DNA of 64,000 nt from an uncultured Chlamydiales bacterium (GCA_963700985.1 OY969554.1:32001-96000); one strand, 5' to 3'. Positions 40,835 through 54,139 are shown, counted from the first letter of the stretch. A program made the numbers and translations. The notes: generated by a model from the letters alone, not told the origin.

Positions 40835-41344
40835 ATGAAAACATTTATTTTTCTGTCACTCTGTTTGGGACTACATGTCATGGGAGATACCGCTGAGGCT
40901 AAGCAAGAATATAAGCCTTCCGATGCAAAGGCATTGGGAAAAGAGCTCATGAGCAATTTGCGCGGAGTATTTTCCATAGATCAAAACAACAAAGAAAGGC
41001 TTGGTGGACGAGAAGTTCCAGCTTTACGCAATGGAAATTGGATCATTAATTCGCATCCGATAGCGCTGGTGGATAGTTTTACAAAAGACACAAATACGAT
41101 CGCAACACTTTTTGTAAAAGATGGCAATGAGTTTATACGGCTTTCTACAACAGAAAAAAATGAAAAGCCAGGAACCATTTTAGATCACTCCCATCCAGCA
41201 TATAAGCATCTGATAGGAGAGCTAAGATACACTAACAAAGTTACTCTCTCTGGAAAAGATTACATGGCGGATTATGACGTTTTCCGCGACCGGCAGGGAA
41301 GAGTGGTCGGCGCTTATCTAGTAGGAATCCCTCTGACACCTTAA
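40835..41344 (+). CDS. Secreted stand-alone Cache (Cache3/Cache2-type) domain protein
   Basis: Signal peptide; ATLFVKDGNEFIRLSTT, GTILD..HPAY, GKDYMADY, GRVVGAY. Confidence 0.75.
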   Translation: MKTFIFLSLCLGLHVMGDTAEAKQEYKPSDAKALGKELMSNLRGVFSIDQNNKERLGGREVPALRNGNWIINSHPIALVDSFTKDTNTIATLFVKDGNEFIRLSTTEKNEKPGTILDHSHPAYKHLIGELRYTNKVTLSGKDYMADYDVFRDRQGRVVGAYLVGIPLTP

Positions 41345-41366: not shown

Positions 41367-41573
41367 CTATCTGCGCTTAGCGGAGCGTACCTTGAACGAA
41401 CGTGCAATAACCCAGAGAGCCGATAATCCGATAAGGAGGTAAAGGAAGTGTTGCACTTTGGACAATGCGAAAAATGTCCACATGATAAAGTTAAAGTCCG
41501 CGACGCCAACCCCGCCCCAAGCGATGCCGCCAATCACGAGCAAAATTTTTGCCAATCCATCTAGTATTTTCAT
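41367..41573 (-). CDS. DUF378 family small membrane protein
   Basis: ILLVIGGIAWGGVG..DFN..YLLIGLSAL; start MKILD after a GGAG RBS. Confidence 0.75.
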   Translation of the reverse strand: MKILDGLAKILLVIGGIAWGGVGVADFNFIMWTFFALSKVQHFLYLLIGLSALWVIARSFKVRSAKRR

Positions 41574-41645
41574 AGGTTTTCTCCCTTGGTCTATTCTTCC
41601 ATATAAAATTAAAGAACAATTCTGCAAAACAAAAAAATCATAAGT

Positions 41646-41676
41646 GAGGTGGAGAGACGCTTTCAGAACTTTTGAT
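41646..41676 (+). repeat. ssrA-3'-end att-like relic A
   Basis: gaggtggagaga-cgctttcagaacttttgat; first 12 nt identical to the reverse complement of the tmRNA 3' end. Confidence 0.8.
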
Positions 41677-41756
41677 CATAAAAAATTGGAAGTTTTTATA
41701 GAATTTTTCGAATTGCAGTACTTATCAAACCGAAAAATTAAAAAGCAGGTTCAGCG

Positions 41757-42341
41757 ATGACATGTCTACCAATTTGCCTTGCTGCAGTGATCTATGCACT
41801 TACCGGAGGACCTTCTTCAGGCAAGACTTCTATCATCAAGGAATTAGAAAAGCGCGGGGAACCTGTAATTCACGAAGCAGCTACCGATTGGATTATTAGA
41901 AAAATAGAATCAGGGATTTCTGAGCCTTGGAAAGAGGAACGCTTTACTTTGGACATACTCAACATACAGCTTGAAAAAGAAGAGCCGTGGTTGCTTAGAG
42001 AGGGTAAAGTTTTTGTAGATAGAGGGGTTTTTGATATCTATCCTTTTGCGATGGCCAATGGGCTTGCAGGAACTAAAACCTTAGCTTGTGCGAATAAGAT
42101 CCTAAATCGAATTGATCTCAATCAGCGTTATAAAGCGATATTCTTTATCATGCCTCATTCCGAAAATTTCTCTACTCTTCAAAACGAAATTCGCAGAGAA
42201 AACACTCAAGATGCCGCCAAGTTGGAGGTTGCAACCTATGCAATCTATTGTAGGCATGACAATTTCATCGTGGTTCCGGGTGGAATGTCTCCTGCAGAGC
42301 GCGCAGATTTCATTTTGGAAAAAATATGCGAACTAGAATGA
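41757..42341 (+). CDS. NadR/Ttd14-type (AAA_28) P-loop NTPase
   Basis: ALTGGPSSGKTS; IHEAA; FVDRG. Confidence 0.8.
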   Translation: MTCLPICLAAVIYALTGGPSSGKTSIIKELEKRGEPVIHEAATDWIIRKIESGISEPWKEERFTLDILNIQLEKEEPWLLREGKVFVDRGVFDIYPFAMANGLAGTKTLACANKILNRIDLNQRYKAIFFIMPHSENFSTLQNEIRRENTQDAAKLEVATYAIYCRHDNFIVVPGGMSPAERADFILEKICELE

Positions 42342-42362
42342 AAAGAACCTAGTAATGAGGTT

Positions 42363-42395
42363 TGAAGAAGGAGAGACACTTTCCGAATTTTCGAT
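42363..42395 (+). repeat. ssrA-3'-end att-like relic B (degenerate)
   Basis: tgaagaaggagaga-cactttccgaattttcgat; downstream intergenic DNA also resembles that after relic A. Confidence 0.65.
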
Positions 42396-42454
42396 TATGA
42401 AAGATTAAGAAGGTTTGGCACTATTTCTTATTCATTGAAGGGCCAGGTTCAGAA

Positions 42455-43255
42455 ATGAATTATCAAACCCCACAACCAAATAGACAGCTATTTATGTACG
42501 ATATCCAAGTCAATCATGTTTACTTCGTCGTCGACAGAGAAACTTACGAGGCGATTAAGGGTTCTGATTTCGTTCGATCTCTGGCCTCTACCTATGAGCA
42601 GAAAAACTCTACAGACAATCAGACTGGTTGGGAGGGGTTTTACATACGAGGCAAAAATACTTTTGTTGAGCTTTTCTATCCGCAAGATCGTTATCCATCC
42701 ATTGGGATTTCAGGAATAGGTATGGGGGTCGATTATATAGGGGGGCTGGCAGCAATTTCAGAACGTCTGCAAAAAGATCTTCCAAACCTCAATAGAGGGG
42801 CTTTTAATCGTCAGGGAAAGCCTTGGTTTGAGTATCTAGCTGTAAATGATAGTTACTTTTACGAGAAAAATTCTTTCTGGATCATGGAATATGCACCCCA
42901 ACATTTTTCAGAAAATTCAGAAAATGTTTCTAGGGCGCATTATAACTCAGAGAAATATGATCCTAATAAACCTTTCCTAGACATCACAAAATTTGCCGTG
43001 GCGCTGCAGCCTGAGGGTCGTGATACCCTTTCTACTTATCTCAAAAGTTTTGGGTTACGTGCGCAAGATGACTCATACATGACTTCTGAAAATATAGAGA
43101 TTCAGCTGGTCGATGAGGATGAAAAACGTAAGGGAATTTACCAGATCGATTTCTCTCTCAAAGAAAAGCTTCGAGAAAATTATTCCTGCCGGCTAGGAAA
43201 TTCTCAGTTGACCATCCAAGGAAATAAAGGCTCGTGGATTTTCTTTAAGAAGTAA
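42455..43255 (+). CDS. Glyoxalase/VOC-like protein (DUF5829-like)
   Basis: NHVYFVVD.ETY.AI, WEGFYIRGKNTFVELF, WIMEY; true start may be 42494. Confidence 0.65.
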   Translation: MNYQTPQPNRQLFMYDIQVNHVYFVVDRETYEAIKGSDFVRSLASTYEQKNSTDNQTGWEGFYIRGKNTFVELFYPQDRYPSIGISGIGMGVDYIGGLAAISERLQKDLPNLNRGAFNRQGKPWFEYLAVNDSYFYEKNSFWIMEYAPQHFSENSENVSRAHYNSEKYDPNKPFLDITKFAVALQPEGRDTLSTYLKSFGLRAQDDSYMTSENIEIQLVDEDEKRKGIYQIDFSLKEKLRENYSCRLGNSQLTIQGNKGSWIFFKK

Positions 43256-43416
43256 GAGCGTGTTTACAAACTAGATCTTCTCTATGAGGTAAATTCCTTT
43301 CAATTACTGCGTTAAAATGCGCATAAAAACCTCTTGTTTATATAATAATTTTAGCAATGAGGCGTAAATAGCATCTCTATTATAATGATCTATGTTTAAA
43401 CAAACGGAGAAGACAG

Positions 43417-43539
43417 ATGCGTAGTATAATTTTTTTTATGATTGCTCTGCTTGGTGTAAGTTCAATGCTACAAGCCAGTGATATGACTCCTGAAGAGGCG
43501 CAAGAAAGAGCTCGAATCGTAACGATGGGCGGCGATTAA
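43417..43539 (+). CDS. 40-aa ORF with signal peptide (small secreted peptide or truncated gene)
   Basis: GGAGA RBS; MRSIIFFMIALLGVSSMLQA-SDMTPEEAQERARIVTMGGD*. Confidence 0.5.
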   Translation: MRSIIFFMIALLGVSSMLQASDMTPEEAQERARIVTMGGD

Positions 43540-43553
43540 GTAGTAAAAGACCG

Positions 43554-43622
43554 TTAAAGAGGGCATCGACAAGTCGATGTCTAACAGAGCGCAGACAAGT
43601 CAGCGCACTCCAAAAAAATGGC
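43554..43622 (-). repeat. REP-like arm (right-arm orientation)
   Basis: gggcatcgacaagtcgatgtcta...gcgcagacaagtcagcgcactccaaaa. Confidence 0.85.
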
Positions 43623-43628
43623 GTGGCT

Positions 43629-43946
43629 CTACTTTTTCTTTGGAAGGGGAAGTGCAGAAGCAGTTAGCTGAATCAGCTCTGCAAGCCATTTCTTATCGCT
43701 CCATTTCTCTTCTGGAATAAGAAAATAGGGCTTGGCGCCCGGATAGGGAAAGCCTTCCAATATTTTTCCTATGAACTGTTCTCCCACTTCTGTGGGCTTT
43801 ACGAACAATTGATCGTCGCAAACCAATGCAATGATCTTCTCATCGCAATAAATTCCGTATTCACCGAACATCTTTTTCGCGCGAATTTCCCCAGCTGCTT
43901 TCATTTGTAAAACAAGGAAATCTATCGTCGATTGCTTTGAACTCAT
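43629..43946 (-). CDS. TfoX N-terminal domain protein
   Basis: KKMFGEYGIY.D.KIIALVCDDQLFVKPT; PYPGAKPYF. Confidence 0.88.
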   Translation of the reverse strand: MSSKQSTIDFLVLQMKAAGEIRAKKMFGEYGIYCDEKIIALVCDDQLFVKPTEVGEQFIGKILEGFPYPGAKPYFLIPEEKWSDKKWLAELIQLTASALPLPKKK

Positions 43947-44314
43947 TTTTTCTTCTTTTTCCTACTTTGAATCAGCTGTTCCATTTCAGCTAATTCCGCA
44001 TCGGAAATCTCTTCCTCTTCGATTAAATGAGCAACGAGAGCCTTCATTCCGACTCCAGCGCACATCTGTTTGATTTTTGCTAAAAGAGAAGGAGGTGCCA
44101 CGCCCGTTTCTGGAAGCCAGTATTCATACTGAAGCCCCATACGTTCACGGCGCATTTGCTTTTTTTCTACAAGGCGATTCATCACTGTCATGATGGTGTT
44201 GTAATTATCTTTTCCACCTAGAAAGCGATGCATGTCTTTAACTGTAAGTCGTTGCTCCTTGTTCATGATCTGAAGGATCTGAATTTCGAGCTCTCCGAAC
44301 GCCCTTTTTGTCAT
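43943..44314 (-). CDS. BlaI/MecI/CopY family transcriptional repressor
   Basis: GELEIQILQI, TVKD, YNTIMTVMNRLVEK, ISDAELAEM. Confidence 0.88.
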   Translation of the reverse strand: MTKRAFGELEIQILQIMNKEQRLTVKDMHRFLGGKDNYNTIMTVMNRLVEKKQMRRERMGLQYEYWLPETGVAPPSLLAKIKQMCAGVGMKALVAHLIEEEEISDAELAEMEQLIQSRKKKKK

Positions 44315-44341
44315 AGTATTCCATTGGTTGCAAAGCAACTT

Positions 44342-44355
44342 ACTACATGCGTAGT
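44342..44355. promoter_or_regulatory. Probable BlaI/CopY-type operator
   Basis: ACTACATGCGTAGT palindrome; one mismatch to TACAnnTGTA; about 28 nt upstream of the repressor ATG. Confidence 0.6.
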
Positions 44356-44411
44356 TTTTTGGCAACGTTAAGTGAGGTGAAAAATATCTTTAAAAAACCA
44401 GTTATCGCTAC

Positions 44412-45053
44412 TTGTTTTATAGCGTTTTTCCCTGTAAAATCTTTGTCACAAAGAATAGAACGCGGTACATGATGGAAAGTTCAAATAATGATCTGCTGCT
44501 CGATACCAAATTGCAAATTTCTTTTCCTAAAAGCGATAAAGATCACCGGTTGCAGTTAGTGGAGATTAATGGATCCATTTTTGCGATTGTTCATTCTCCT
44601 TTAGAATCGCTCGGGCCAATTTGTCTCAACTGTGAAGAGTGGAGCCTGGTTCTTTTAGCTCCAATTAAGAGTAAGACAAACATATTAATTTCAGCGATCA
44701 ACGTCATCTGCCTTAACGAAATTGCCTCAGAAGAGGGAAATGTAAACGTACATGCTACTAACCGTCTGGTAAAATTCGCGCATTCGATGAAACCTCTTGA
44801 GAAAGTCTGCGAGATGGGGGAACGTGGTGAGTTCCAGTTCGATGATGATCCTGGCGCTTTTTTATATTACTATCGCTTGTTTGAAGGCATTGTCAGTAGC
44901 ATCCGCGAGGGAAGTTCCGCTTCATTTTCTGATGCACAGCAAAAGCTTATCATGTGCCTTTGCACACTTGCAGATAAAATTGAGAAAAAACCAGAAAATC
45001 TAAACCTTCACCAAGTTCTTGATATTTGGAATGTTCCCGCTTTGAAATCCTGA
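44412..45053 (+). CDS. Hypothetical protein
   Basis: 213 aa ORF; likely start near 44470 (MMESS). Confidence 0.55.
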   Translation: MFYSVFPCKIFVTKNRTRYMMESSNNDLLLDTKLQISFPKSDKDHRLQLVEINGSIFAIVHSPLESLGPICLNCEEWSLVLLAPIKSKTNILISAINVICLNEIASEEGNVNVHATNRLVKFAHSMKPLEKVCEMGERGEFQFDDDPGAFLYYYRLFEGIVSSIREGSSASFSDAQQKLIMCLCTLADKIEKKPENLNLHQVLDIWNVPALKS

Positions 45054-45063
45054 TTAACTTTCA

Positions 45064-45149
45064 GCCATCTTTTTTGGAGTGCGCTGACTTGTCAGCGCTT
45101 TCATAGACATCGACTTGTCGATGCCATAAAAAATTATCTCGAATTCTAA
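45064..45149 (+). repeat. REP-like arm (left-arm orientation)
   Basis: ttttggagtgcgctgacttgtcagcgct..tagacatcgacttgtcgatgc..aaaaattatctcgaattctaa. Confidence 0.85.
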
Positions 45150-45356
45150 ATAAACTTGAGGATTTGATTAGAGCAATGACTCAGCTGCGCGAATCGGTGT
45201 TTCCTTCGCAAAATGATGAGCAATAATCTTAAATCTGCGATTGAGGTAAAGTCTATGAGCATTCGGCTGATAGATTTGCAGGACATATGTACAAATATTG
45301 CTGAAAAAATTGTGAGGATGCAACCATAATCCCAACTTTTACTGGGAGGCTAATAT

Positions 45357-45977
45357 ATGTTTTCCGTTTTTTCCTATCTCGTTGCTTTCTTGTTCATGAT
45401 CTCATCCACATTTGCCGATCAGATCTTTTTGGATCGAGAGGGGAGGGAGATCCGTATTGCTCCAGTAAAATCCATCGATGAGATCGATCTCGCCAGAGGA
45501 AAAGAGATTTTAGTCAGCGCATTTATGAAGGGTTATGAAGATGTCCCTCTTGTCTTACTTGATCCCGAGTTTCAGTCGATTGGAGATGTGAGACGTTTTT
45601 ATGAGCGATATTTTGATAGTGAATTGGAGCATTTCAAGCATGGAGAGTTGATCTGGGTGCAGGCTTTTGAAGGCGAGAAGCTTTTGGGCTGGGCAACTTT
45701 TGAAATAGAGACAAATGACTCCGCCTACATGGATCTTCTTGCCGTCGACCCGGCCGAACAGAGAAGGGGAATCGGGCAACATTTGACCTTTTCTATTCGC
45801 TCGCCTGATCTATTTCCCAACATTCAGACGATCTCTCTTTTCATCCGCAAAGTAAATGCAAACGGCCGAAAATTTTATGAGGGAATGGGCTTTTCCGATT
45901 TTCAATCTGATCGGAAAGATAACTTCGTCGACCTCTCTCTTCTGACGGGGATGAAATGGTTTTATAATACGAAATAG
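45357..45977 (+). CDS. GNAT family N-acetyltransferase with signal peptide
   Basis: LAVDPAEQRRGIG motif A; N..GRKFYEGMGF. Confidence 0.85.
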   Translation: MFSVFSYLVAFLFMISSTFADQIFLDREGREIRIAPVKSIDEIDLARGKEILVSAFMKGYEDVPLVLLDPEFQSIGDVRRFYERYFDSELEHFKHGELIWVQAFEGEKLLGWATFEIETNDSAYMDLLAVDPAEQRRGIGQHLTFSIRSPDLFPNIQTISLFIRKVNANGRKFYEGMGFSDFQSDRKDNFVDLSLLTGMKWFYNTK

Positions 45978-46019
45978 CCTGCCGCTAGTGAGATTACATG
46001 TAGATCATCTAGTTGTGAT

Positions 46020-47168
46020 CTAGCAGCATGTAACACAGCAGCGAGGGGCTCTTTCGAAGGCTACAATAGCCCGATCATTCATGATGCCATCAGAGCTGAC
46101 ACAACTAACAAAACCCCACCGTTTAAGCGAATACTTGTCGATGTTATCCCGCAAATAAGGCAAGAATTCCTTTGCCCGTTTGGGATCGTCTTTTTTTAGC
46201 AACGCATCAATGATATAAGCGCTTCTAAAGACGTGGGCGCGGTTGACTGCTCTTTTTCTCAGTCGAGGTAGAAATTTTGCAAATAGATCAATCGCTTTCT
46301 CGATATTTTGTTCGAACACTAAAGAATCTAGAGGAGAAGATGGCCGTGCAAGATCGGAGCTTTGCTGCGGACGTGCAAACATTTTTCTTATCTCTTCAGT
46401 ATGCGTGAATAGTTCATCAAATGAGCTCTCTGGCTTTGGCAACAACCCTTCAATAAATCCTCCCCATACTTCTTTATACTGTTGAGGATGAGTGCAGCGA
46501 AAAATCAAATGATTGACAGCTAGATTTTGCATCCAGGCATAGGGTAAACAGTTTGCTAGCTTGATTGCGGACTCCACGCCTCTTTGATGTGCAGTGATAA
46601 TAAGCAAGTGGATCAAAGTACGTACGAGATACTTCGTTCTTGAATCAAACATATTACTTCGTGCAAGTTCAACTTCTGAGAAAAATGGCTCAATGGAAAA
46701 TGCAGCTTCATGAGCGCATGAGGGATGAGATAGCAGAAGAATTAAAGCATCGGCTTCTTTTTTGTGTTTAGCTAAAGTTGTAACGACCTCGTTAACATAG
46801 TGCATTTCGCTTCCAAAACGAGAACGTAAATAATACACATGTTTAACACTCTCCATAACCGAGTCTAAATAAGTGGCAATTTTAAATGCTGTTTGGAAGT
46901 CATGGTCTTCTAAATAGTGATTAAATTTGCCAATCAGCTTATCGATCAAGATCCTTTGACAAGAATCGGGAAAATTCTCTTCAAATGCTTCATTCGTCAA
47001 AACAGCAAGCTTTTCAAAAGAAGGTTGTTCCTCTTCTTTTAACTCAGGCAGGCTTCTTACGTAGTTAATGCACTCTTCTCGCTTGGCCGCCTCTGTGTCC
47101 AAAATGGGAAGAGAACATAGAGCTGTAGGCTGCAATGAAAGAGGAGAAGAAGAAATAATAGATGTCAT
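46020..47168 (-). CDS. Hypothetical helical-repeat protein ending in CCVTCC (candidate effector)
   Basis: Ser-rich N-terminus MTSIISSSPLS; C-terminal RAPRCCVTCC. Confidence 0.6.
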   Translation of the reverse strand: MTSIISSSPLSLQPTALCSLPILDTEAAKREECINYVRSLPELKEEEQPSFEKLAVLTNEAFEENFPDSCQRILIDKLIGKFNHYLEDHDFQTAFKIATYLDSVMESVKHVYYLRSRFGSEMHYVNEVVTTLAKHKKEADALILLLSHPSCAHEAAFSIEPFFSEVELARSNMFDSRTKYLVRTLIHLLIITAHQRGVESAIKLANCLPYAWMQNLAVNHLIFRCTHPQQYKEVWGGFIEGLLPKPESSFDELFTHTEEIRKMFARPQQSSDLARPSSPLDSLVFEQNIEKAIDLFAKFLPRLRKRAVNRAHVFRSAYIIDALLKKDDPKRAKEFLPYLRDNIDKYSLKRWGFVSCVSSDGIMNDRAIVAFERAPRCCVTCC

Positions 47169-47398
47169 AATTATCCTTATTTTTTGAATGATTATACACA
47201 TTAAATATTTAAAACAAAATCAAATAAATGTGTTTGATAGATATCTTTTCACGTAAAAATGGATATTGTAAAGTTCTATTTATAACGCACTATTGTAAAA
47301 ATAATTTATATCTGTAATGCGCTTATATTAAGCTGCTTACGCAGATCCTCACGGGGCTTTCGACAGACTTTGAGAATAGTATTTATTATTTTAAAAAA

Positions 47399-47432
47399 TG
47401 GGGGAGGAGAGATGCTATCAGAACTTTTAATC
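47399..47432 (+). repeat. ssrA-3'-end att-like relic C
   Basis: tgggggaggagaga-tgctatcagaacttttaatc; 12/14 match to tggaggtggagaga. Confidence 0.72.
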
Positions 47433-47498
47433 GAAAGCTGGCGCAATTACACCAACATCTTCATTCCTTTTTCATCACACGAGGTAACTATCGCAATC

Positions 47499-50400
47499 TT
47501 AAAAAGAATACCCAATTTTTCCGTAGAATTGATTGGAACTGTAACCGCTTCCAAATTCTCCGTTATAACTGGCGGAACTGAAAATATTCCAATTTGTTTG
47601 CCAAAAGAGTTCTACGGCAGGAGAAATGAGACTTTGCTCGGTGGTAAAGGCCTCGACAACAAAGGATGCAGGAGCGCTTACAATCGCTGCATTAAGATGT
47701 CCAACGTGATGAGGCTTTTTGTAGATATAGCTCAACTTCGCTTGTGCAATAAAAATTCCCCAGCTGAAAGTGGTAGTTTTATATCCATTGAGGCCTGTTT
47801 CTGATCGTAGCATCCATGAAGTTCTAGAAGGGAACTTCATATTGTATGGAGCCGCTCCTTTCTCTGAGTAGCTCGGATCCCATTCAAAGACCCAGTCTAG
47901 TAAACTAAAAGGTTCGATAGTTACTGTATTTATATTGAAATCGTATCCCGTGCCAAAATGAAGATCGAGTTGCTCTGCGTTGTAAGAGCTTCTAGCAGTC
48001 TCTTTAAAGCCTGGAAAAGAGATGATGCGTTTTTGTTCCACGTTCATATATTCGCCCCAAATGGCAGCATCGATGAAAAAATCGGAAAAAAATCTCATCC
48101 CGTAGACGCTGAGATAACCTGCATCTAGGTGACTATTCCCCATAGATTGATGTTCATGAATCGATGAGTGAGCATACCCTGCGAGCGCACCGATGCATCC
48201 TTGATCAGTATTGCCATAATCATAGGCTGCAAAAAAACCACCGCTGTTGAAATCAAAAGTGGGGGTTTGATCTTGAGAGTTCTGACGGCTGAATTGACCA
48301 AAGCCCATTCCCCAAAGTTGAGAGCTGGTGTTTTTAGGCGGAGCATAAATCGCTCTAAGAGGGGATTGATTGTCTGCTAAAAGTTCATTGTAAGCTAAGA
48401 AGGCTGTATCTTTTGCATGGCTTTTTTTGCCTTCATTACGCGCAAGGCGTCTTTTGGTAAAATGCGAATCGAGCGATTCGGAAAACATGAACATAACGTT
48501 TTGCGCAACAAATGTAGGAATTGAGTTCCTCGAAGGGCTGATGGATTTAAGGGCATTTTGATACTGGGAGGAAGAGAGGTCGTTTAAAAGATCAAATTGC
48601 TCTGTCAATCCCAACGAATCAGCATCTGGGGCTAGAGTATTGAGGTAATTGGCAACTCTTAAGTTGTTGCCTCTGAGGCCTTGCGTAGAAAGACTGGGAA
48701 GGGAAGGGGAGAAACCTAAAAAATCAAATTGGACAAATGTAGGAGTTCCCATCGGTAGATAGGCGAGCGAATAATTCGGAGTTTTCCCCGTAAAAGCAAC
48801 GGAATCAAAAGTGTCTGTAATGCCAGATGAAGTGAGAACAGTATATGTTCCAGGCTTAGCAGTTGAATCTAAGTCGATTTCTAAGATACCTGCGAGCGTT
48901 GCTGTTCCACTAACGGCAACTAAAGATGTGCCACTGGAATCGATCCCGATATGAACAAGGCTTCCCAAGGTGCCGTCAACTGGATCTGCAGAATTTAGGA
49001 GCAAACTGCCAAGAGTAAGTGTTCCGCCATTGTCTGGAGAGATCGTTCCCGAGTTGACTAAGACGTTTCCGGTCAAGGTCCCGATTCCGCTCAACATACC
49101 TCTTTGCGAGCTAATGATTGTTTCTCTACAGACGGAAACCGGTGCTTCGTTGATCGCTCCATTCACTTTAAAATTCGCATTCCTGATTGTGATGCTTCCT
49201 TGATAATCGGTGGTTCCGTTGTAAACAACAGTTCCATTTCCTGTGACTATGACAGATGTTCCTCCTGCGTTGAAAGAGGTGTCGTCAACAAACGCAACTT
49301 GCTCACCGAGAGTCAAAAGATCACCAGTATCGTTTGCTGTAAGTGTGAGAGATGCCCCTTGGCGTAAAAAAATACTATTTCCCCACATCAACGTTGATCC
49401 ATCAGTGCCATCTGTCCCTCCAGGGCCGCCCGTTCCATGCGTTCCCGCTTGGGTTGTATTATTTGATGTATTGAAAATGGTTGGGATTCCCGAGAACGCT
49501 TGAATATTGAGATTCACATTGCTATCCACAAAGATAGCGCCTCCAAGGCCGCTTCCGCCACCACCACCTCCGCCACCGAAACCCGTTCCGACGCTATTGG
49601 CGCCAGCCCCTCCAGAGCCGCCACCGAGGTTTCCTATATCAGATCCGCCGGGGGTATTGGAAGAGTTAGAAGGTCCACCGCCGCCACCACCACCACCGCC
49701 TAAAGAATTGCCCCCTCCAGCAGGCGTGGTACCAGATTGGTCGGCGCCACCACCGCCTCCACCACCACCAATTCCTCCGGAACCGCCTTGTACAGTATAA
49801 TTGATATCGTAAGCGCCCGTACCCGCGCCTCCGCCCCCACCTCCACCATAGCCACCTGTTCCAGCTTGTCCGTCAATTCCATTTGTAGAAGGCGTTACAA
49901 CAACTCCACCACCACCGCCACCGCCTCCATCTCCGCCATTACCTCCGGAAGGTAGTGCGCTGCCTCCTGGTGCTATTTGCCCTTGAGGCAGGGTTCCATT
50001 CATTCCTGCGCTTCCACCACCACCACCGCCTGCTGGAGTTCCACCACCACCACCGCCGCCACCTGCTGTGTTTCCTCCGGAGTTACCTCCTCCACCAGCA
50101 CCAGCAAGAATTGCGAGACCATCACCATTTCCATCAAGGCCGGCATTTTGATCGGAGCCCCCAGTCCCCAGATTCGTGAGCGTTGGGATGGTGGCGCGCG
50201 ATCCAAGGCCGCCACCGCCACCACCACCGCCGCCGCTGTTGTCAGTTGAAAGAGTGACATCTCCACCATCTCCACCAAAGCCACCACCACCTCCTCCTCC
50301 AGTGCTTCCTGTGGTCGTAATAGAACCCCCATTTCCGCTAAAGCCCCCACCGCCGCCGCCGCCCTCATCGCCCGTGGGAGATGAGATGCTTAAATAACTT

Positions 50401-50945
50401 CCTCCGTTTCCGCCGACAGCAGAGCAGCTGTTGATCGAAACATTCATCAAGGTGATCGAAGGATTCGAACCATTTAAAAAGGTTTGAGGTGCGTAAATGG
50501 CGCCCCCAGCACCCAAGCCGCCGCCGCCGCCCGAAGTACCATCTCCACCATCGCCGCCTTTTGCTCTCAGGTTTTGAAAGGTCATGTTTTGGATCGTCAC
50601 ATTCCCCATGGGGACAAAAAGACCGCTGTAAGTGCCATTATTGCCGTCAATTGTGACTGTGGGAATAGAGCCTGAATTGCCAATCGTGATATTCACAGGA
50701 TTTGAGGAGTTATTGATGATCGGCAGAATCCCATTGAGCTGTATCATCATCGGAGGATTGGCAAAAACAATCGCATAATCATCAGGTGTCGTACTTAAAC
50801 TCTCATTCATTGTATTCAAGCAATATCTAAGATCGCCCGTCAATCCCATGCTGCCCGGCTTACTGTCCGAGCTTTCAGTTACAATAAGCGTTGTTAAAGC
50901 GAATAAGGAATTTGAGGCGAATAAAAAAATGCAATATTTGAACAT
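47499..50945 (-). CDS. Autotransporter with glycine-rich passenger domain
   Basis: Signal peptide; poly-Gly tracts; GGAIY/GGAIF motifs; beta-helix-like linker; C-terminal barrel ending GKIGYSF. Confidence 0.9.
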   Translation of the reverse strand: MFKYCIFLFASNSLFALTTLIVTESSDSKPGSMGLTGDLRYCLNTMNESLSTTPDDYAIVFANPPMMIQLNGILPIINNSSNPVNITIGNSGSIPTVTIDGNNGTYSGLFVPMGNVTIQNMTFQNLRAKGGDGGDGTSGGGGGLGAGGAIYAPQTFLNGSNPSITLMNVSINSCSAVGGNGGSYLSISSPTGDEGGGGGGGFSGNGGSITTTGSTGGGGGGGFGGDGGDVTLSTDNSGGGGGGGGGLGSRATIPTLTNLGTGGSDQNAGLDGNGDGLAILAGAGGGGNSGGNTAGGGGGGGGTPAGGGGGGSAGMNGTLPQGQIAPGGSALPSGGNGGDGGGGGGGGVVVTPSTNGIDGQAGTGGYGGGGGGGAGTGAYDINYTVQGGSGGIGGGGGGGGADQSGTTPAGGGNSLGGGGGGGGGPSNSSNTPGGSDIGNLGGGSGGAGANSVGTGFGGGGGGGGSGLGGAIFVDSNVNLNIQAFSGIPTIFNTSNNTTQAGTHGTGGPGGTDGTDGSTLMWGNSIFLRQGASLTLTANDTGDLLTLGEQVAFVDDTSFNAGGTSVIVTGNGTVVYNGTTDYQGSITIRNANFKVNGAINEAPVSVCRETIISSQRGMLSGIGTLTGNVLVNSGTISPDNGGTLTLGSLLLNSADPVDGTLGSLVHIGIDSSGTSLVAVSGTATLAGILEIDLDSTAKPGTYTVLTSSGITDTFDSVAFTGKTPNYSLAYLPMGTPTFVQFDFLGFSPSLPSLSTQGLRGNNLRVANYLNTLAPDADSLGLTEQFDLLNDLSSSQYQNALKSISPSRNSIPTFVAQNVMFMFSESLDSHFTKRRLARNEGKKSHAKDTAFLAYNELLADNQSPLRAIYAPPKNTSSQLWGMGFGQFSRQNSQDQTPTFDFNSGGFFAAYDYGNTDQGCIGALAGYAHSSIHEHQSMGNSHLDAGYLSVYGMRFFSDFFIDAAIWGEYMNVEQKRIISFPGFKETARSSYNAEQLDLHFGTGYDFNINTVTIEPFSLLDWVFEWDPSYSEKGAAPYNMKFPSRTSWMLRSETGLNGYKTTTFSWGIFIAQAKLSYIYKKPHHVGHLNAAIVSAPASFVVEAFTTEQSLISPAVELFWQTNWNIFSSASYNGEFGSGYSSNQFYGKIGYSF

Positions 50946-50995
50946 GAGAGATCTCTAATTATTTTTTGTCACAGTATTGGGTAAAAAAGAATTGT

Positions 50996-51868
50996 TCAAG
51001 GCTTAAAATTCGGAAGAGAGGAGTATTCGAATTTATGAGGAATGTAGTTAGGTCTCATAGCAAATGCGATGGTTGCATATCGAATTTTGCCGCTTTGCGT
51101 GACAATGTGAGGAGTTGGATAGATCGAAAATTCAGTTAGAAGCACTCCGGGAATAAGGAGGATAGAGTTTTGATTAGGCCTCCTTGGAAATTCTCTTAGT
51201 GGAGATGAAAAATCATCGACTGAGAATGAGGATTTATAAGGAGAAAGAAGCAGCGATTGATTGTCAGTGCTATCGAGAAAAAGGGAAAACGCAGCGCCAT
51301 CGTAATGCGGTCTTGTAGCGATGTAAGAGGGGAGGTATTTGATTACTTTGAAAAGGATGGGAGGATGACCATATTTCGAAGAGAAAATCGTTTCTATGCC
51401 TAACTCAGCTGCCGCCTCATCGAATAGATATTCGTATGATTTTTGGATCTCGTGACAAGCTTCAAAAAAATGGATGATTTGGCGAACTTGATTGAATTCT
51501 GGGAAGAGGGAGCAAATAAACTCATGGAAATGGATCGAATAGTAGAAGGAGATCTGGTTTCTTCCTTCTCTTTTTGACTCGTCGTAGAAACCAAAAAAAT
51601 CAGTGGAGTAATAAGCTCTATCTTTTGTGCGAATAAAACGCTCTTTTGCGATGTATAATTTTTGTGCCCAAACTGGATTTGTTTGAAGAAATTCGATGAG
51701 TTCATCGAAATATGCATAAAGAGAATCGAACGTTTCCGTTCCATGCTGCTTATCGCAAATTTCTAAATAACCTGTTCGCTTAAATTGTTCTGCAAGAGGT
51801 GCAGCACAAAAAGATGGAAATGCAAATAAAAGCGAAACCCATAGAAACAAAGTCTTCTGGACTTTCAT
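50996..51868 (-). CDS. 2OG-Fe(II) oxygenase superfamily protein with signal peptide
   Basis: PHYD (HxD), PTPHIV (distal His), RYATIAF. Confidence 0.7.
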   Translation of the reverse strand: MKVQKTLFLWVSLLFAFPSFCAAPLAEQFKRTGYLEICDKQHGTETFDSLYAYFDELIEFLQTNPVWAQKLYIAKERFIRTKDRAYYSTDFFGFYDESKREGRNQISFYYSIHFHEFICSLFPEFNQVRQIIHFFEACHEIQKSYEYLFDEAAAELGIETIFSSKYGHPPILFKVIKYLPSYIATRPHYDGAAFSLFLDSTDNQSLLLSPYKSSFSVDDFSSPLREFPRRPNQNSILLIPGVLLTEFSIYPTPHIVTQSGKIRYATIAFAMRPNYIPHKFEYSSLPNFKP

Positions 51869-52055
51869 GAGTTAATCGTATGATTTGTTCTTTGAATTTG
51901 TCAAATTTTTCGAGTAAGAGCAAGCTCATCTTATATTCTCTGCTGCTTGCAACAGAGAAGTGCAGTAGGATATGCAAGAAGTCTATTAAAGATCAAAATG
52001 CCCGTAGAAATCTTTAAAAGAGAAAATCCGATGTATTTTTAGAAACACGTGGAGA

Positions 52056-52412
52056 TTGTTTATGACAGATTTACCTAAATGCGCCAAATGCAGTTCTGAA
52101 CACACATACGAAGATGGAGTTTTGTATATTTGTCCAGAATGTGGTCATGAATGGGCTATCCATGCTGAGAAGGAAGGTGAGACGGCGCAGCCTGTTGTAA
52201 GGGATGCGTATGGAAACATTCTCCAGGACGGTGATAGTGTGACGATTATCAAAGATGTAAAGGTCAAAGGATCGTCATCGGCTTTAAAAGTCGGTGTAAA
52301 AGTGAAAAATATTCGTCTGGTGGATGAGGTCAACGGCCACAACATCGAAGCGAAGATTCCTGGATTCGGTACGATGATGCTCAAATCTGAGATTGTTAAG
52401 AAAAGCAATTAG
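52056..52412 (+). CDS. yjdM: PhnA/YjdM zinc-ribbon protein
   Basis: [41 protein letters not shown]. Confidence 0.9.
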
Positions 52413-52516
52413 CCAGCTTTTTAAACTTGGATTGGTTTTCTATTGGAGAATGTTTTTGAATTTTTAGAGGAGGCCCTTATTAGATTATCCGGAATTCCTG
52501 AATCTCTCTTTTAGGG

Positions 52517-52548
52517 TTGGAGGTAGAGAGCTGTATTTGGAACTCTTT
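52517..52548 (+). repeat. ssrA-3'-end att-like relic D
   Basis: ttggaggtagagag-ctgtatttggaactcttt. Confidence 0.65.
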
Positions 52549-52800
52549 TTGGAGTGCGTGCGACTTGTCGCCGCTTTCGTAGACATCGACTTGTCGATGC
52601 TCTAAAAATCATCTCGAATTCTAATGGAATCAATGTTTAAGCTCGTCACAGTCTCATAATGGGCTTTTGAGGTGTGCGTTTCAAACCAAATTGCAGAACA
52701 CCACTTGTATTGATTTGAGCTCGTAACAAGCTTATTAAAGAGGGCATCGACAAGTCGATGTCTACCAAGGCGCTGACAAGTCAGCGCACTCCAAAAAAGA
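52545..52800. mobile_element. REPIN/MITE-like element: two ~55 bp inverted REP-like arms around a ~140 bp spacer
   Basis: Left arm ttttggagtgcgtgcgacttgtcgccgct..gacatcgacttgtcgatgc; right arm gcatcgacaagtcgatgtc..gcgctgacaagtcagcgcactccaaaa. Confidence 0.75.
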
Positions 52801-52829
52801 TAACTTTGAAATAGAGTTTTGTTAAAAAG

Positions 52830-52893
52830 AAAAAGCCGGGAAGTTATCCTGGCCTTAGTATTGGAGGTGGAGAGACACATTCAGAACTTTTAA
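52830..52893 (+). repeat. ssrA-3'-end att-like relic E with a copy of the ssrA terminator
   Basis: aaaaagccggg..cctggcctt then tattggaggtggagaga (17 nt identical to 53764-53780) then cacattcagaacttttaa. Confidence 0.88.
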
Positions 52894-52928
52894 CCGGAGG
52901 TCAATCTCTGGTAAGTTCCGAATAACTC

Positions 52929-53384
52929 TTAGTGAAGGGCGGCCCTATTTCCAGCGAAAGCCTTTACTGTTCGTATAAAAATTTCCTGGCTTTTGAGCAT
53001 TTCGATAAACTTGTCCTTTTCCTGCATGTTAGATTCAGTTAAATATCCGAAGATTATTTTCTTTCGCTCGCCGGTGTTTAAATTGGGAAACGAAAACGTG
53101 TGATACTGGCTCCTTACATACATCTTGAACTCATGAGCTACTTTCAACTGCTCTTCCTGATCGATTGCATAGGACATCACAACGGAAGTGCAATCTGTGC
53201 TTAAATAGGGCAAAACCGATGTTTGCATCCCTTCTCTATAGGTTCGAGAATTTACCACGTGAGTTATAGCAGTCGCTGCGTCATTTACCTCGATTTTGGT
53301 AGGTTCTATGTAAGTCTTCACGCCCCAGAGATCGATCATAGGCAGGATTTCTTTCGGTTCCATTGCTTTTGGTATTGCTGTCAT
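52929..53384 (-). CDS. Hypothetical protein (short F-box-like helix LPYLSTDCTSVVMSY)
   Basis: 151 aa ORF between two att-like copies. Confidence 0.55.
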   Translation of the reverse strand: MTAIPKAMEPKEILPMIDLWGVKTYIEPTKIEVNDAATAITHVVNSRTYREGMQTSVLPYLSTDCTSVVMSYAIDQEEQLKVAHEFKMYVRSQYHTFSFPNLNTGERKKIIFGYLTESNMQEKDKFIEMLKSQEIFIRTVKAFAGNRAALH

Positions 53385-53497
53385 AAACTCTCTTTATAAG
53401 AATCTTAATTATTGTTTTTTTATTCAAAAAATGTATAAAACATGAGAAAATTTTACTGTTTTTTTGATTATTTTGCCATAAAAAGAACCTATCTAAC

Positions 53498-53735
53498 TAA
53501 AAAGGCCAGGTTTTACCTGACCAAAATGGAGTTGGGGAGAAGCCCTCGCGCTAAGGGCGATGCCCCTAGTCTACCGGGCCGGCTGCGGAATCACGGAGAA
53601 GGTCCAGTGGACCTTCGAAGTGCGGAGCAGGTGAGCCATTTATGGCGAACCGGGCTCGGTTGCACAGTGTGCAACAAACGAGTTCAACTCGATTCTCTCA
53701 CGCAAGGCAAACTGTTGCCTTGCTCACCTCCAATA
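53498..53735. other. Multi-hairpin element inserted at the tmRNA 3' end
   Basis: Stacked hairpins (gaaggtcca.tggaccttc; gttgcaca.tgtgcaac; gcaaggcaa..ttgccttgc), an inverted copy of the tmRNA 3' arm, and a direct copy of the 3' end plus terminator at 53498-53541. Confidence 0.75.
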
Positions 53736-53764
53736 AAAAAGGCCAGGTTTTAAAACCTGGCCTT
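53735..53764 (-). terminator. ssrA terminator
   Basis: aaggccaggtttt-aaaacctggcctt palindrome followed by a T tract on the minus strand. Confidence 0.8.
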
Positions 53765-53766
53765 AT

Positions 53767-54139
53767 TGGAGGTGGAGAGAATCGAACTCTCGTCCTTAGC
53801 AAACTCCCTATTAATGCCTACATGCTTAGTGTCTTTATTGTTACGTCGGCCCTGCTGAAGGACACCACACTAGAGACCAACGCTCTTCTTCTTATCTCGA
53901 ATTCTCCCTCGAAGAAGGGAAGAAGTTAGGAGATTCATACCAAGGTTGATGACGATAGTTACTAACGCTCTTGGTCAGGCCTTAGGCTATCGAGAGCTAA
54001 AAACGGTTAGGTTCTTAAGCTGCTAATAAGCACTCTTCAGTGTTATCAATTCTTGTTTTACCGGATGATTAAGGAGGCCAACCGATATCCTCCGCATGCC
54101 ACTAATACTTTGTTCCCAAGTCGAAACCTTTACACCCCC
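53767..54139 (-). ncRNA. ssrA: tmRNA; tag peptide (A)DNTEECLLAA
   Basis: 5' GGGGGTGTAAAGGTTTCGAC; 3' GAGAGTTCGATTCTCTCCACCTCCA with T-arm and G3-U pair; internal ORF ending GCA GCT TAA; CCA not encoded. Confidence 0.96.

Follow-up and report, generated by a model that had tools for sequence, protein, structure and literature searches.

Introduction

The closest described system to the locus reported here is the ssrA-GI family of Dehalococcoides. As described by McMurdie et al. 2011 (PMC3146451), islands lie in tandem downstream of the tmRNA gene, ssrA, with 20-bp repeats of its 3' end; the gene for the serine recombinase DsiB sits next to attL, its reading frame crossing the site without a stop; and 15 islands that have no integration module are read as cis-mobilisable, with an accretion-type route proposed. 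Here we describe an array of ssrA-end repeats, or scars, spread over 12 kb downstream of ssrA in a 64,000-nt stretch of DNA from an uncultured Chlamydiales bacterium (GCA_963700985.1 OY969554.1:32001-96000). We call this whole stretch the window; its genome (2,067,302 bp) is G000, related genomes bear G-numbers and the loci fetched from them L-numbers. From comparison with these relatives, the array was probably assembled from segments stacked at the 3' end of ssrA by a family of large serine recombinases (LSRs); the foreign arm that follows most of the repeats would be the constant half of the LSR's attP, and the recombinase itself would since have been lost.

Williams is said to have described traffic at the tmRNA gene, and accretion of the ICESt1 type, with cis-mobilisable elements, was reportedly set out by Pavlovic et al. 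2004. That islands stack at tRNA and tmRNA genes is well known (see Islander and TIGER). Among the tycheposons of Prochlorococcus, 910 of 937 have tyrosine recombinases, and the elements measure 10-20 kb and contain replication modules (bioRxiv 10.1101/2020.12.28.424599). Chlamydiae are usually viewed as having few gene-exchange routes, and a full-text search, judged on titles and abstracts and with most subscription journals outside its coverage, returned no account of such chlamydial arrays.

Results

The 3' end of ssrA is repeated over 12 kb and followed by a shared foreign arm

The window contains an intact ssrA gene, whose last 15 nt (the core) comprise the 3' strand of the T stem, the 3' strand of the acceptor stem, the discriminator and a single further base. 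This 15-mer, with up to three mismatches allowed, matches the window 12 times compared with 1.61 matches expected, a count that was reached in none of 100 shuffles. Seven matches are on the plus strand (41643, 42362, 47398, 52517, 52861, 53526 and 53766), corresponding to the live end and six copies in the same orientation. The locus has the layout of tandem islands at a tmRNA gene: ssrA is intact, and behind it foreign segments are delimited by copies of the gene's 3' end in a single orientation. Terminator-like hairpins adjoin the cores at 53739-53764 (the live site), 53504-53522 and 52835-52853.

The copies at 41643, 42362, 47398, 52517 and 52861 diverge after GGAGAGA into a common arm, CNCNTTCAGAACTTTTNA (repeat family D5). 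A sequence-only reading of the window had reported that five copies switch at about the same point to a shared non-tmRNA arm, and both the switch point and the arm were found again in our analysis. It had also listed among the recurrences of the tmRNA end a copy at 53527 (53526 here), which turned out to be without the shared arm and to belong to a different, non-coding type of element. The target, the copies and their scores are as follows; the bit scores come from an independent profile, which was built solely from 178 units of other genomes and is fairer than a profile of the window's own five copies.

53767-54139, minus strand: ssrA (tmRNA), the live target (ARAGORN; Rfam RF00023, 152 bits)
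53766-53780, plus strand: live core, the last 15 nt of ssrA, TTGGAGGTGGAGAGA
53526-53765, plus strand: core copy 53526-53540, which opens the foldback element, then the ssrA terminator hairpin 53739-53764
52861-52897, plus strand: scar B5, the best preserved, TTGGAGGTGGAGAGA then CACATTCAGAACTTTTAACCGG (47.6 bits, genome-wide E 2e-12)
52517-52546, plus strand: scar B4, degenerate, with a REPIN-like repeat inserted in its arm (7.1 bits)
47398-47433, plus strand: scar B3 (18.4 bits, genome-wide E 0.0026)
42362-42397, plus strand: scar B2, degenerate (8.9 bits, E 0.015 within the array)
41643-41678, plus strand: scar B1, core …GAGGTGGAGAGA then the LSR arm CGCTTTCAGAACTTTTGATCA (38.0 bits)

When the genome was scanned with the profile of the window's own copies, these five scored 26.6-38.4 bits and the next match 14.5 bits. 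With the independent profile, the top scores among 40 random 13-kb chunks of the genome were 13.6, 9.6, 9.6 and 7.8 bits, and the score of B2 was equalled or passed in three of the 40. The copies at 41643, 47398 and 52861 are strong, and those at 42362 and 52517 are weak on their own. The copy at 52517 gains support because its counterpart in the same-genus genome G003, a scar at 1332737, has the identical repeat insertion in its arm.

Profile scans of the 2.07-Mb genome found no core followed by the arm outside the array. The motif is thus not equally frequent away from ssrA, in keeping with the link to this gene that the sequence-only reading had drawn. The best match elsewhere is an arm without a core, at genome positions 1461374-1461397 (27.2 bits). 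This arm-only copy is preceded by several TGGACGA repeats, and the sole tRNA gene found nearby, tRNA-Ser, lies ~1 kb from it, away from the arm's reading direction and not on the target side.

The arm accompanies a large serine recombinase in relatives

We distinguished two kinds of scar: type B, in which the core is followed by the window's arm, and type A, in which the repeat continues through the T loop (ATCGAAC). An LSR of 436 aa with Resolvase, Recombinase and Zn_ribbon_recom domains is encoded ~150 nt from the ssrA core in G062. Its orthologues adjoin ssrA or a scar in G013, G061, G036, G063, G045 and G076, and orthologues or fragments were found in 25 of the 129 family genomes. The gene is always oriented toward the target, ending ~150 nt away, and in 6 of 7 genes the first in-frame stop comes only 7-244 nt beyond the point where the target starts. 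This LSR bears a generic resemblance to known enzymes, namely to the models of CcrB and XisF and, among PDB entries, to the A118 integrase; the NCBIfam models for CcrB, CcrA and CcrC gave 83-95 bits, where the cut-off is 900. In G062, the gene upstream of the LSR encodes a Schlafen/AlbA_2-HATPase_c_4 protein rather than a second serine recombinase.

All six ssrA-linked LSR elements with a readable far end (G062, G013, G061, G045, G076 and G036) end in the type-B arm, the G061 element being counted despite a doubtful intervening core. LSR paralogues with 51-74% identity (L158, L160, L161, L164 and L165) abut tRNA-Tyr, tRNA-Leu(caa), tRNA-Met and tRNA-Asn genes with the same geometry, which looks like one LSR family retargeted to several tRNA-type genes. 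The paralogues at tRNA-Tyr have 73-74% identity, and two tRNA-Tyr elements end in a 3' fragment of tRNA-Tyr followed by TTCAGAACTTTTGACTGG, at the same spacing from the T stem. Since the arm is shared by ssrA-linked and tRNA-Tyr LSR elements, it goes with the recombinase and not with ssrA. We read it as the putative constant (P) half-site of the LSR's attP. The sequence-only reading had attributed the arm-bearing copies to a single recombinase family and suggested a search for the enzyme whose attP contains the arm; the relatives point to the LSR for both.

The central 11 nt of the arm (TTCAGAACTTT) also occur as an inverted copy in the 3' coding region of LSR genes, ~125-130 nt before the attachment site. 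This inverted copy is present in 5 of 9 LSR loci scanned (for example at L160 5933, L164 8783 and L157 1945) and in the ssrA-linked loci L021 and L155.

A P4-like tyrosine integrase (376 aa in G084, Pfam Phage_integrase) is also found at ssrA, with orthologues of at least 74% identity in the ssrA islands of at least seven genomes and a pseudogene 1.7 kb from ssrA in G003. Its islands measure 9-13 kb, and their far end is type A (…GGAGAGAATCGAAC…) in six of seven, with no end assigned for the seventh. Co-occurrence across the 129 genomes did not discriminate between the two enzymes: the motif is present in 23 of 25 LSR-positive genomes and in 10 of 12 with the ssrA-type tyrosine integrase.

Two other candidates were rejected. 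A 216-aa tyrosine recombinase in the type-B-bounded unit L071 is a catalytic-domain fragment with relatives in 5 of 129 genomes, which argues against it as the general enzyme. As a Xer/dif-like site, the arm shares no more than a 5-nt run with the best dif-like candidate (genome position 464380, near the cumulative-skew maximum), though the test is a weak one. A separate locus, G061:C3 1119-3608, has four adjacent tyrosine-recombinase-domain matches within 2.5 kb; the middle two resemble one broken gene, so that the row may comprise three recombinase genes, the last of which is a relative of the L071 fragment. This row may be a 'recombinase in trio' element.

Type-B scars are widespread among chlamydial genomes

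The 26-nt junction, with up to three mismatches, was found in 71 of the 129 family genomes, belonging to 26 of 40 genera; as a control, the pattern was reversed and then matched none of the listed genomes. Exact matches were obtained in at least 119 public stretches from species-representative genomes. Among the matches listed, the titles name Chlamydiae, Parachlamydiales, Simkaniaceae, Waddliaceae, Rhabdochlamydiaceae and Anoxychlamydiales metagenome-assembled genomes (MAGs), together with a few evidently mislabelled bins, and on these grounds we assign the window to an environmental chlamydia; viral contigs gave no exact junction match. Across the 178 distinct units, conservation covers one base before the core, a 13-nt core and the 22-nt arm, and nothing beyond (consensus CGCATTCAGAACTTTTGAtTGG), and the hairpin that precedes each core varies in sequence between copies. 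A hairpin within the arm, suspected from a few copies, was discarded after alignment of 73 sequences, most units being without its second strand.

Same-orientation arrays lie directly downstream of ssrA in the well-assembled relatives G003, G084, G062, G054 and G061. The array of G003 has at least 10 copies over 36 kb, spaced 0.5-1.4 kb apart. The boundary gene lies 12 kb from ssrA in the window genome, 18 kb in G001 and 36 kb in G003, and the content is sporadic, with five same-genus genomes having only patches of the window's 12 kb in common.

The window genome has no candidate recombinase for the array

Searches of G000 for a serine recombinase found no match to PF00239 and, by tblastn with the LSR, a best genome-wide E of 0.72. 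Within the array, tblastn with LSR and integrase queries found no recombinase or remnant (best E 0.045), consistent with the earlier observation that no recombinase is present in cis. Nor was a tyrosine integrase of the ssrA type found in G000; of its four tyrosine recombinases, two are Xer-like and the others are integrases that belong to a tRNA-Met island ~85-100 kb away. These two integrases (171202-172338 and 185429-186496) were rejected as the enzymes of the array because of their position away from ssrA; their identity to the ssrA integrase is 42-45%. Since the genome is without an LSR and the array without a recombinase remnant, the array is stranded: it is a record of past traffic that could move again only with an incoming helper.

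The tRNA-Met island itself spans 168388-186738, between a partial tRNA-Met copy (168388-168455) and the intact gene (186665-186738), and its two tyrosine integrases face each other and are 55% identical to each other.

Cassettes are small, diverse and shared in patches between genomes

We collected 116 distinct type-B-led cassettes from all fetched loci, with 233 open reading frames (ORFs) of at least 70 aa. Their median size is 1.3 kb (interquartile range 0.9-2.2 kb), and 53 of the 116 contain a single ORF. Genes lie in either direction, 118 on the plus and 115 on the minus strand. The 148 cluster representatives match 174 Pfam families, with at most four representatives per family. The commonest cassette gene is RhuM (17 of 233 ORFs, for example L150:12800-13966), and other cargo includes AbiE toxin-antitoxin, Fic, NUDIX, GNAT, APH and methyltransferase genes; no recurrent recombinase was found among this cargo. 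Flanked by att sites of a known autonomous element and free of recombinase or transfer genes, the cassettes have the make-up of cis-mobilisable elements. AbiEii/DUF6088 pairs recur with a conserved GGCTTCAGTC…GAAGCC hairpin that adjoins the core.

We then compared cassettes between genomes. Alignment of the genomes with one another gave 84 matches of at least 800 nt and 85% identity or more, and just 4 of these cross a type-B scar in both partners. Of 268 alignment ends, 49 are no more than 80 nt from a core, compared with 14.2 expected (maximum 24 in 200 randomisations). Similar cassette pairs reach a common boundary in 12 of 32 cases. Over 418 nt, the window's YjdM unit has 96% identity to a unit of G003 that is 469 nt long and bounded by scars, compared with 85% for ssrA itself, and it is also beside scars in five other genomes. 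An AbiE module of 1.9 kb is 92% identical between two genera and ends at a core in both, at different array depths. Together with the many homology breaks away from cores (Discussion), these data show exchange to be mosaic, with homologous recombination probably reshuffling the arrays.

The assembled contigs of three soil-metagenome runs from one study contain no scar-to-scar joint, a result that decides nothing on excision or heterogeneity. The joint of 52837 to 53679 in one contig does not run from scar to scar, and the other loose ends come from related organisms.

A non-coding foldback element lies directly behind ssrA

The copy at 53526 opens a non-coding element of ~210 nt (~53526-53735) that has the tmRNA 3' end on both sides, the two copies being inverted relative to each other. 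The tmRNA-end core makes up the first 17 nt of the element and pairs with the inverted copy near the element's 3' end, which is split by a 22-nt hairpin. The other five species of the genus, and other genera as well, have part or all of this foldback behind ssrA, and in L133 a 61-nt matched part of it is repeated four times, 216 nt apart. Only one of its 44 predicted pairs has a compensatory change, so that it may act either as RNA or as DNA. The terminator and core that flank it are duplicated, with 88% identity over 24 nt (repeat family D14). The foldback may be a third, miniature type of element that uses the ssrA site.

A repeat of ~75 nt is nested in the foldback (~53581-53655) and is dispersed in the genome (1081831-1081902, 1314042-1314111 and 1780591-1780646) and in relatives.

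Organization of the array

The array lies between ssrA and a Cache-domain gene with its DUF378 neighbour, both of which are conserved beyond the array in same-genus relatives. From the distal boundary toward ssrA, the features between the scars are as follows.

40835-41344, plus strand: Cache-domain gene, distal boundary (Pfam)
41367-41627, minus strand: DUF378 gene, distal boundary (Pfam)
41679-42361, plus strand: cassette 1, with a single gene, AAA_28, at 41757-42341 (Pfam E 3.3e-17)
42398-47397, mixed strands: cassette block 2, with six ORFs and two REPIN-like repeats (Pfam)
42455-43255, plus strand: DUF5829 gene, block 2 (Pfam)
43554-43617 and 45067-45132: REPIN-like repeats in block 2 (repeat search)
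43629-43946, minus strand: TfoX_N gene, block 2 (Pfam)
43943-44365, minus strand: BlaI-type repressor gene (Penicillinase_R/BlaI), block 2 (Pfam)
44412-45053, plus strand: ORF of 213 aa, block 2, no Pfam match
45357-45977, plus strand: GNAT gene, block 2 (Pfam)
46020-47201, minus strand: ORF of 393 aa, block 2, no Pfam match
47434-52516, mixed strands: cassette block 3, with autotransporter, 290-aa ORF and YjdM (Pfam)
47499-50945, minus strand: autotransporter gene, block 3 (Pfam)
50996-51868, minus strand: ORF of 290 aa, block 3, no Pfam match
52056-52412, plus strand: YjdM gene, block 3 (Pfam)
52436-52450: decayed core that closes the YjdM unit
52547-52860: interval with only an inverted REPIN-like pair (52562-52608 and 52735-52801) and the hairpin 52835-52853
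52898-53525, minus strand: cassette 5, with an ORF of 151 aa at 52929-53384 (no Pfam match), ending in the hairpin 53504-53522

Of the cargo labels given in the sequence-only reading, AAA_28, TfoX, BlaI, GNAT, autotransporter and YjdM agree with Pfam, but its 'VOC' gene is DUF5829, and the genes that it labelled '2OG' and 'effector' are among the four array ORFs that have no Pfam match. Homologues of the TfoX gene and the 213-aa ORF of block 2 lie behind ssrA in G004 and G001. The GC content of the cassettes (0.38-0.45) is too close to that of the genome (0.448) to be informative.

The REPIN-like repeats of the window are ~60 nt long and form direct and inverted pairs with 88-95% identity. Within the autotransporter gene, 49536-50562 is a long GC-rich region of glycine-codon repeats, at which metagenome contigs of other organisms pile up and break.

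Discussion

The copies of the ssrA end are best understood as attachment-site scars of insertions at the 3' end of the gene, as the sequence-only reading had supposed. Beside the recombinase gene, the left half of the LSR element reads …ATCCAACCAATT followed by the tmRNA core, and its right half is the arm. In the mechanism that we propose, each insertion would have regenerated ssrA and pushed outward a scar made of the 15-nt tmRNA end and the 22-nt arm CGCATTCAGAACTTTTGAYTGG. Strand exchange would occur at the junction of T stem and T loop, where GA immediately precedes the arm; ssrA, the tRNA-Tyr gene and both kinds of scar all have this GA at the close of the core. Upon integration, ssrA would be restored from the element's mimic of the target end, with the element's hairpin as the new trailer, and at the far end the old trailer and core would be joined to the arm, precisely as in the scars of the window. 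The reconstructed 45-nt site has an inverted repeat (CCAAYCAA … TTGRTTGG) as its outer frame.

We infer that the recombinase-less cassettes travelled as passengers. By accretion, an LSR element would land at ssrA beside resident cassettes and excise with a more distal scar, carrying them along; the co-excised block would integrate in a new host, and the LSR element could later leave alone. This appears to be the simplest route that uses only canonical reactions. Two parts of the sequence-only reading go beyond the data. Its '>=5 successive integrations' are not countable in this lineage, because cassette blocks can arrive together with a helper element. Its term 'integron-like' does not fit an array that has no adjacent integrase, whose cassette genes are evenly split in orientation, and whose site is a serine-recombinase half-site with a tmRNA-end mimic rather than attC.

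Several observations weigh against stacking by the LSR family. Recombination itself was not observed, and the case is one of comparative anatomy in which the related genomes are non-independent samples. Two of the five arm copies in the window (42362 and 52517) lack significance singly. The arm was not found in the stretches fetched for the LSR elements at tRNA-Leu, tRNA-Met and tRNA-Asn, that is, for 3 of 5 non-ssrA elements. The genomes G003 (L026) and G054 (L024) each have a second cluster of 2-5 type-B scars, with no tmRNA or tRNA gene in 14-15 kb; these clusters may be secondary sites or rearrangements. In a set of 174 scars that is enriched for type B by the fetching method, an ordinary GC-rich hairpin precedes 106 type-B scars and the LSR-type left half 12. 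Under the canonical serine-integrase model, such cassette sites are attR-like and would not integrate alone. The reconstructed attP shows only weak dyad symmetry (10 of 24 positions), with a centre 2-3 nt left of the switch. Finally, the expectation that cassette boundaries in relatives coincide with the copies was borne out in part: homology breaks fall near cores more often than by chance, but most of them (219 of 268) are not near a recognisable core, and none of 32 cross-genome cassette pairs matches from scar to scar with the core definition used.

Two alternatives concern the enzyme and its substrate. It is improbable that the scars were left by the P4-like tyrosine integrase instead of a serine recombinase. 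This integrase is common in the ssrA islands of the family, has left a pseudogene near ssrA in G003, and shares its host genomes with type-B motifs in most cases, but six of its seven islands are bounded by the type-A repeat and none by the type-B arm, and the occurrence of the arm after tRNA-Tyr fragments at the ends of LSR elements ties it to the LSR and not to ssrA. A somewhat better case, though one that we still consider unlikely, can be made for recombinase-less cassettes that are autonomous substrates, captured and released singly in trans at ssrA in the fashion of integrons. A 37-nt site conserved over 178 units with unrelated cargo, the small size of the cassettes, many with one ORF, the hairpin and core in which each of them ends, and the recurrence of the YjdM unit beside scars in five other genomes would all be expected of such substrates. 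However, the left half of the cassette site is without the LSR-type outer motif and is hence attR-like, the assembled soil-metagenome contigs yielded neither circles nor empty sites, no pair among 32 matches end to end, and the cassettes have no orientation bias and no adjacent integrase.

The other two alternatives dispense with site-specific insertion in this array to a large degree or altogether. Construction mainly by homologous recombination or duplication between the 35-50-nt repeats after DNA uptake, with few or no site-specific events here, strikes us as rather unlikely. The duplicated terminator and core around the foldback and the many homology breaks away from scars are what such a process would leave, yet it explains neither the origin of a constant non-tmRNA arm nor the sharing of this arm with tRNA-Tyr elements and its tie to the LSR gene; homologous recombination can reshuffle scars but cannot create them. 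That the repeat is instead a functional RNA or regulatory signal, such as a terminator module or small RNA copied between genes, is very improbable. Terminator-like hairpins do stand beside three copies, but no Rfam family except tmRNA matches, hairpin sequences vary while core and arm stay constant, and the hairpin suspected within the arm is not kept in full by most units. Moreover, the copies keep one orientation whatever the direction of the genes, and the core, which is confined to the ssrA locus, has exactly the sequence of the tmRNA end.

Stacking by the LSR family, with the arm as constant attP half, thus probably accounts for the array. Beyond this, we tentatively raise the possibility that environmental Chlamydiota share a phylum-wide, ssrA-anchored platform for cassette exchange, run by a retargetable LSR family in which one attP half is constant and the other is swapped (ssrA, tRNA-Tyr and perhaps other tRNA genes). 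On such a platform, the cassettes would be recombinase-less and would mostly have one or two genes, the cassette site would consist of the cassette's own hairpin, the 15-nt tmRNA-end mimic and the constant 22-nt half-site, and LSRs would capture and release cassettes. If this proposal is true, obligate intracellular bacteria would draw on a shared pool of accessory genes, and the platform would offer a natural case of serine integrases that switch targets in a half-site-modular way. The single locus behind ssrA holds well over 100 different small cassettes across many genera, with toxin-antitoxin, Fic, NUDIX, acetyltransferase, phosphotransferase and RhuM genes among their cargo, and some cassettes are 85-96% identical between genera. 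The LSR family seemingly fixes one attP half and changes the other for new tRNA-type targets, which bears on how integrase specificity evolves. With a candidate enzyme and a 37-nt site named, the question can be tested at the bench. Annotators of chlamydial genomes and MAGs can use the arm as a simple marker of DNA that was acquired horizontally.

How does this locus compare with known systems? Like integrons, the arrays have small, often single-gene cassettes with diverse cargo and a short conserved site; unlike them, they have no adjacent intI, no common-promoter logic (118:115) and no attC. Accretion of the ICESt1 type resembles the chlamydial arrays in that att-flanked, recombinase-less segments are stacked at the site of a related autonomous element, but it involves a tyrosine integrase and a protein-coding target, and mobilisation has reportedly been shown by experiment there and is only inferred here.

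SCCmec and SCC-like cassettes at orfX, with CcrAB or CcrC (discussed in PMC3146451), share with these arrays the use of LSRs, short direct repeats at the 3' end of a single-copy essential gene, and recombinase-less members in tandem composites. Their target is protein-coding, however, and the Ccr models match the chlamydial LSR far below their cut-offs. The tycheposons are alike in stacking at tRNA and tmRNA genes with partial target copies between elements and degraded remnants, and in offering an account of variable islands in bacteria without classical gene-transfer systems; the arrays described here differ in being mostly recombinase-less mini-cassettes.

The ssrA-GI family of Dehalococcoides is the closest described system. 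The two have in common (McMurdie et al. 2011) tandem islands at ssrA, direct repeats of 15 nt here and 20 bp in Dehalococcoides, and many islands that lack an integration module; the chlamydial LSR, which occurs in relatives only, adjoins attL like DsiB, and in 6 of 7 genes no stop interrupts its frame across the site. Unlike the Dehalococcoides islands, the chlamydial units are far smaller (median 1.3 kb, often one gene) and belong to a different phylum, the six-gene integration module is not seen here, with the window devoid of any recombinase, and a constant 22-nt P half-site is common to paralogues that target tRNA-Tyr. New here are the phylum and the miniature cassettes, most of them without a recombinase. 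Also new is that at least three types of element coexist at a single site, each switching at a point of its own, and that LSR paralogues with different tRNA-type targets have a constant half-site in common.

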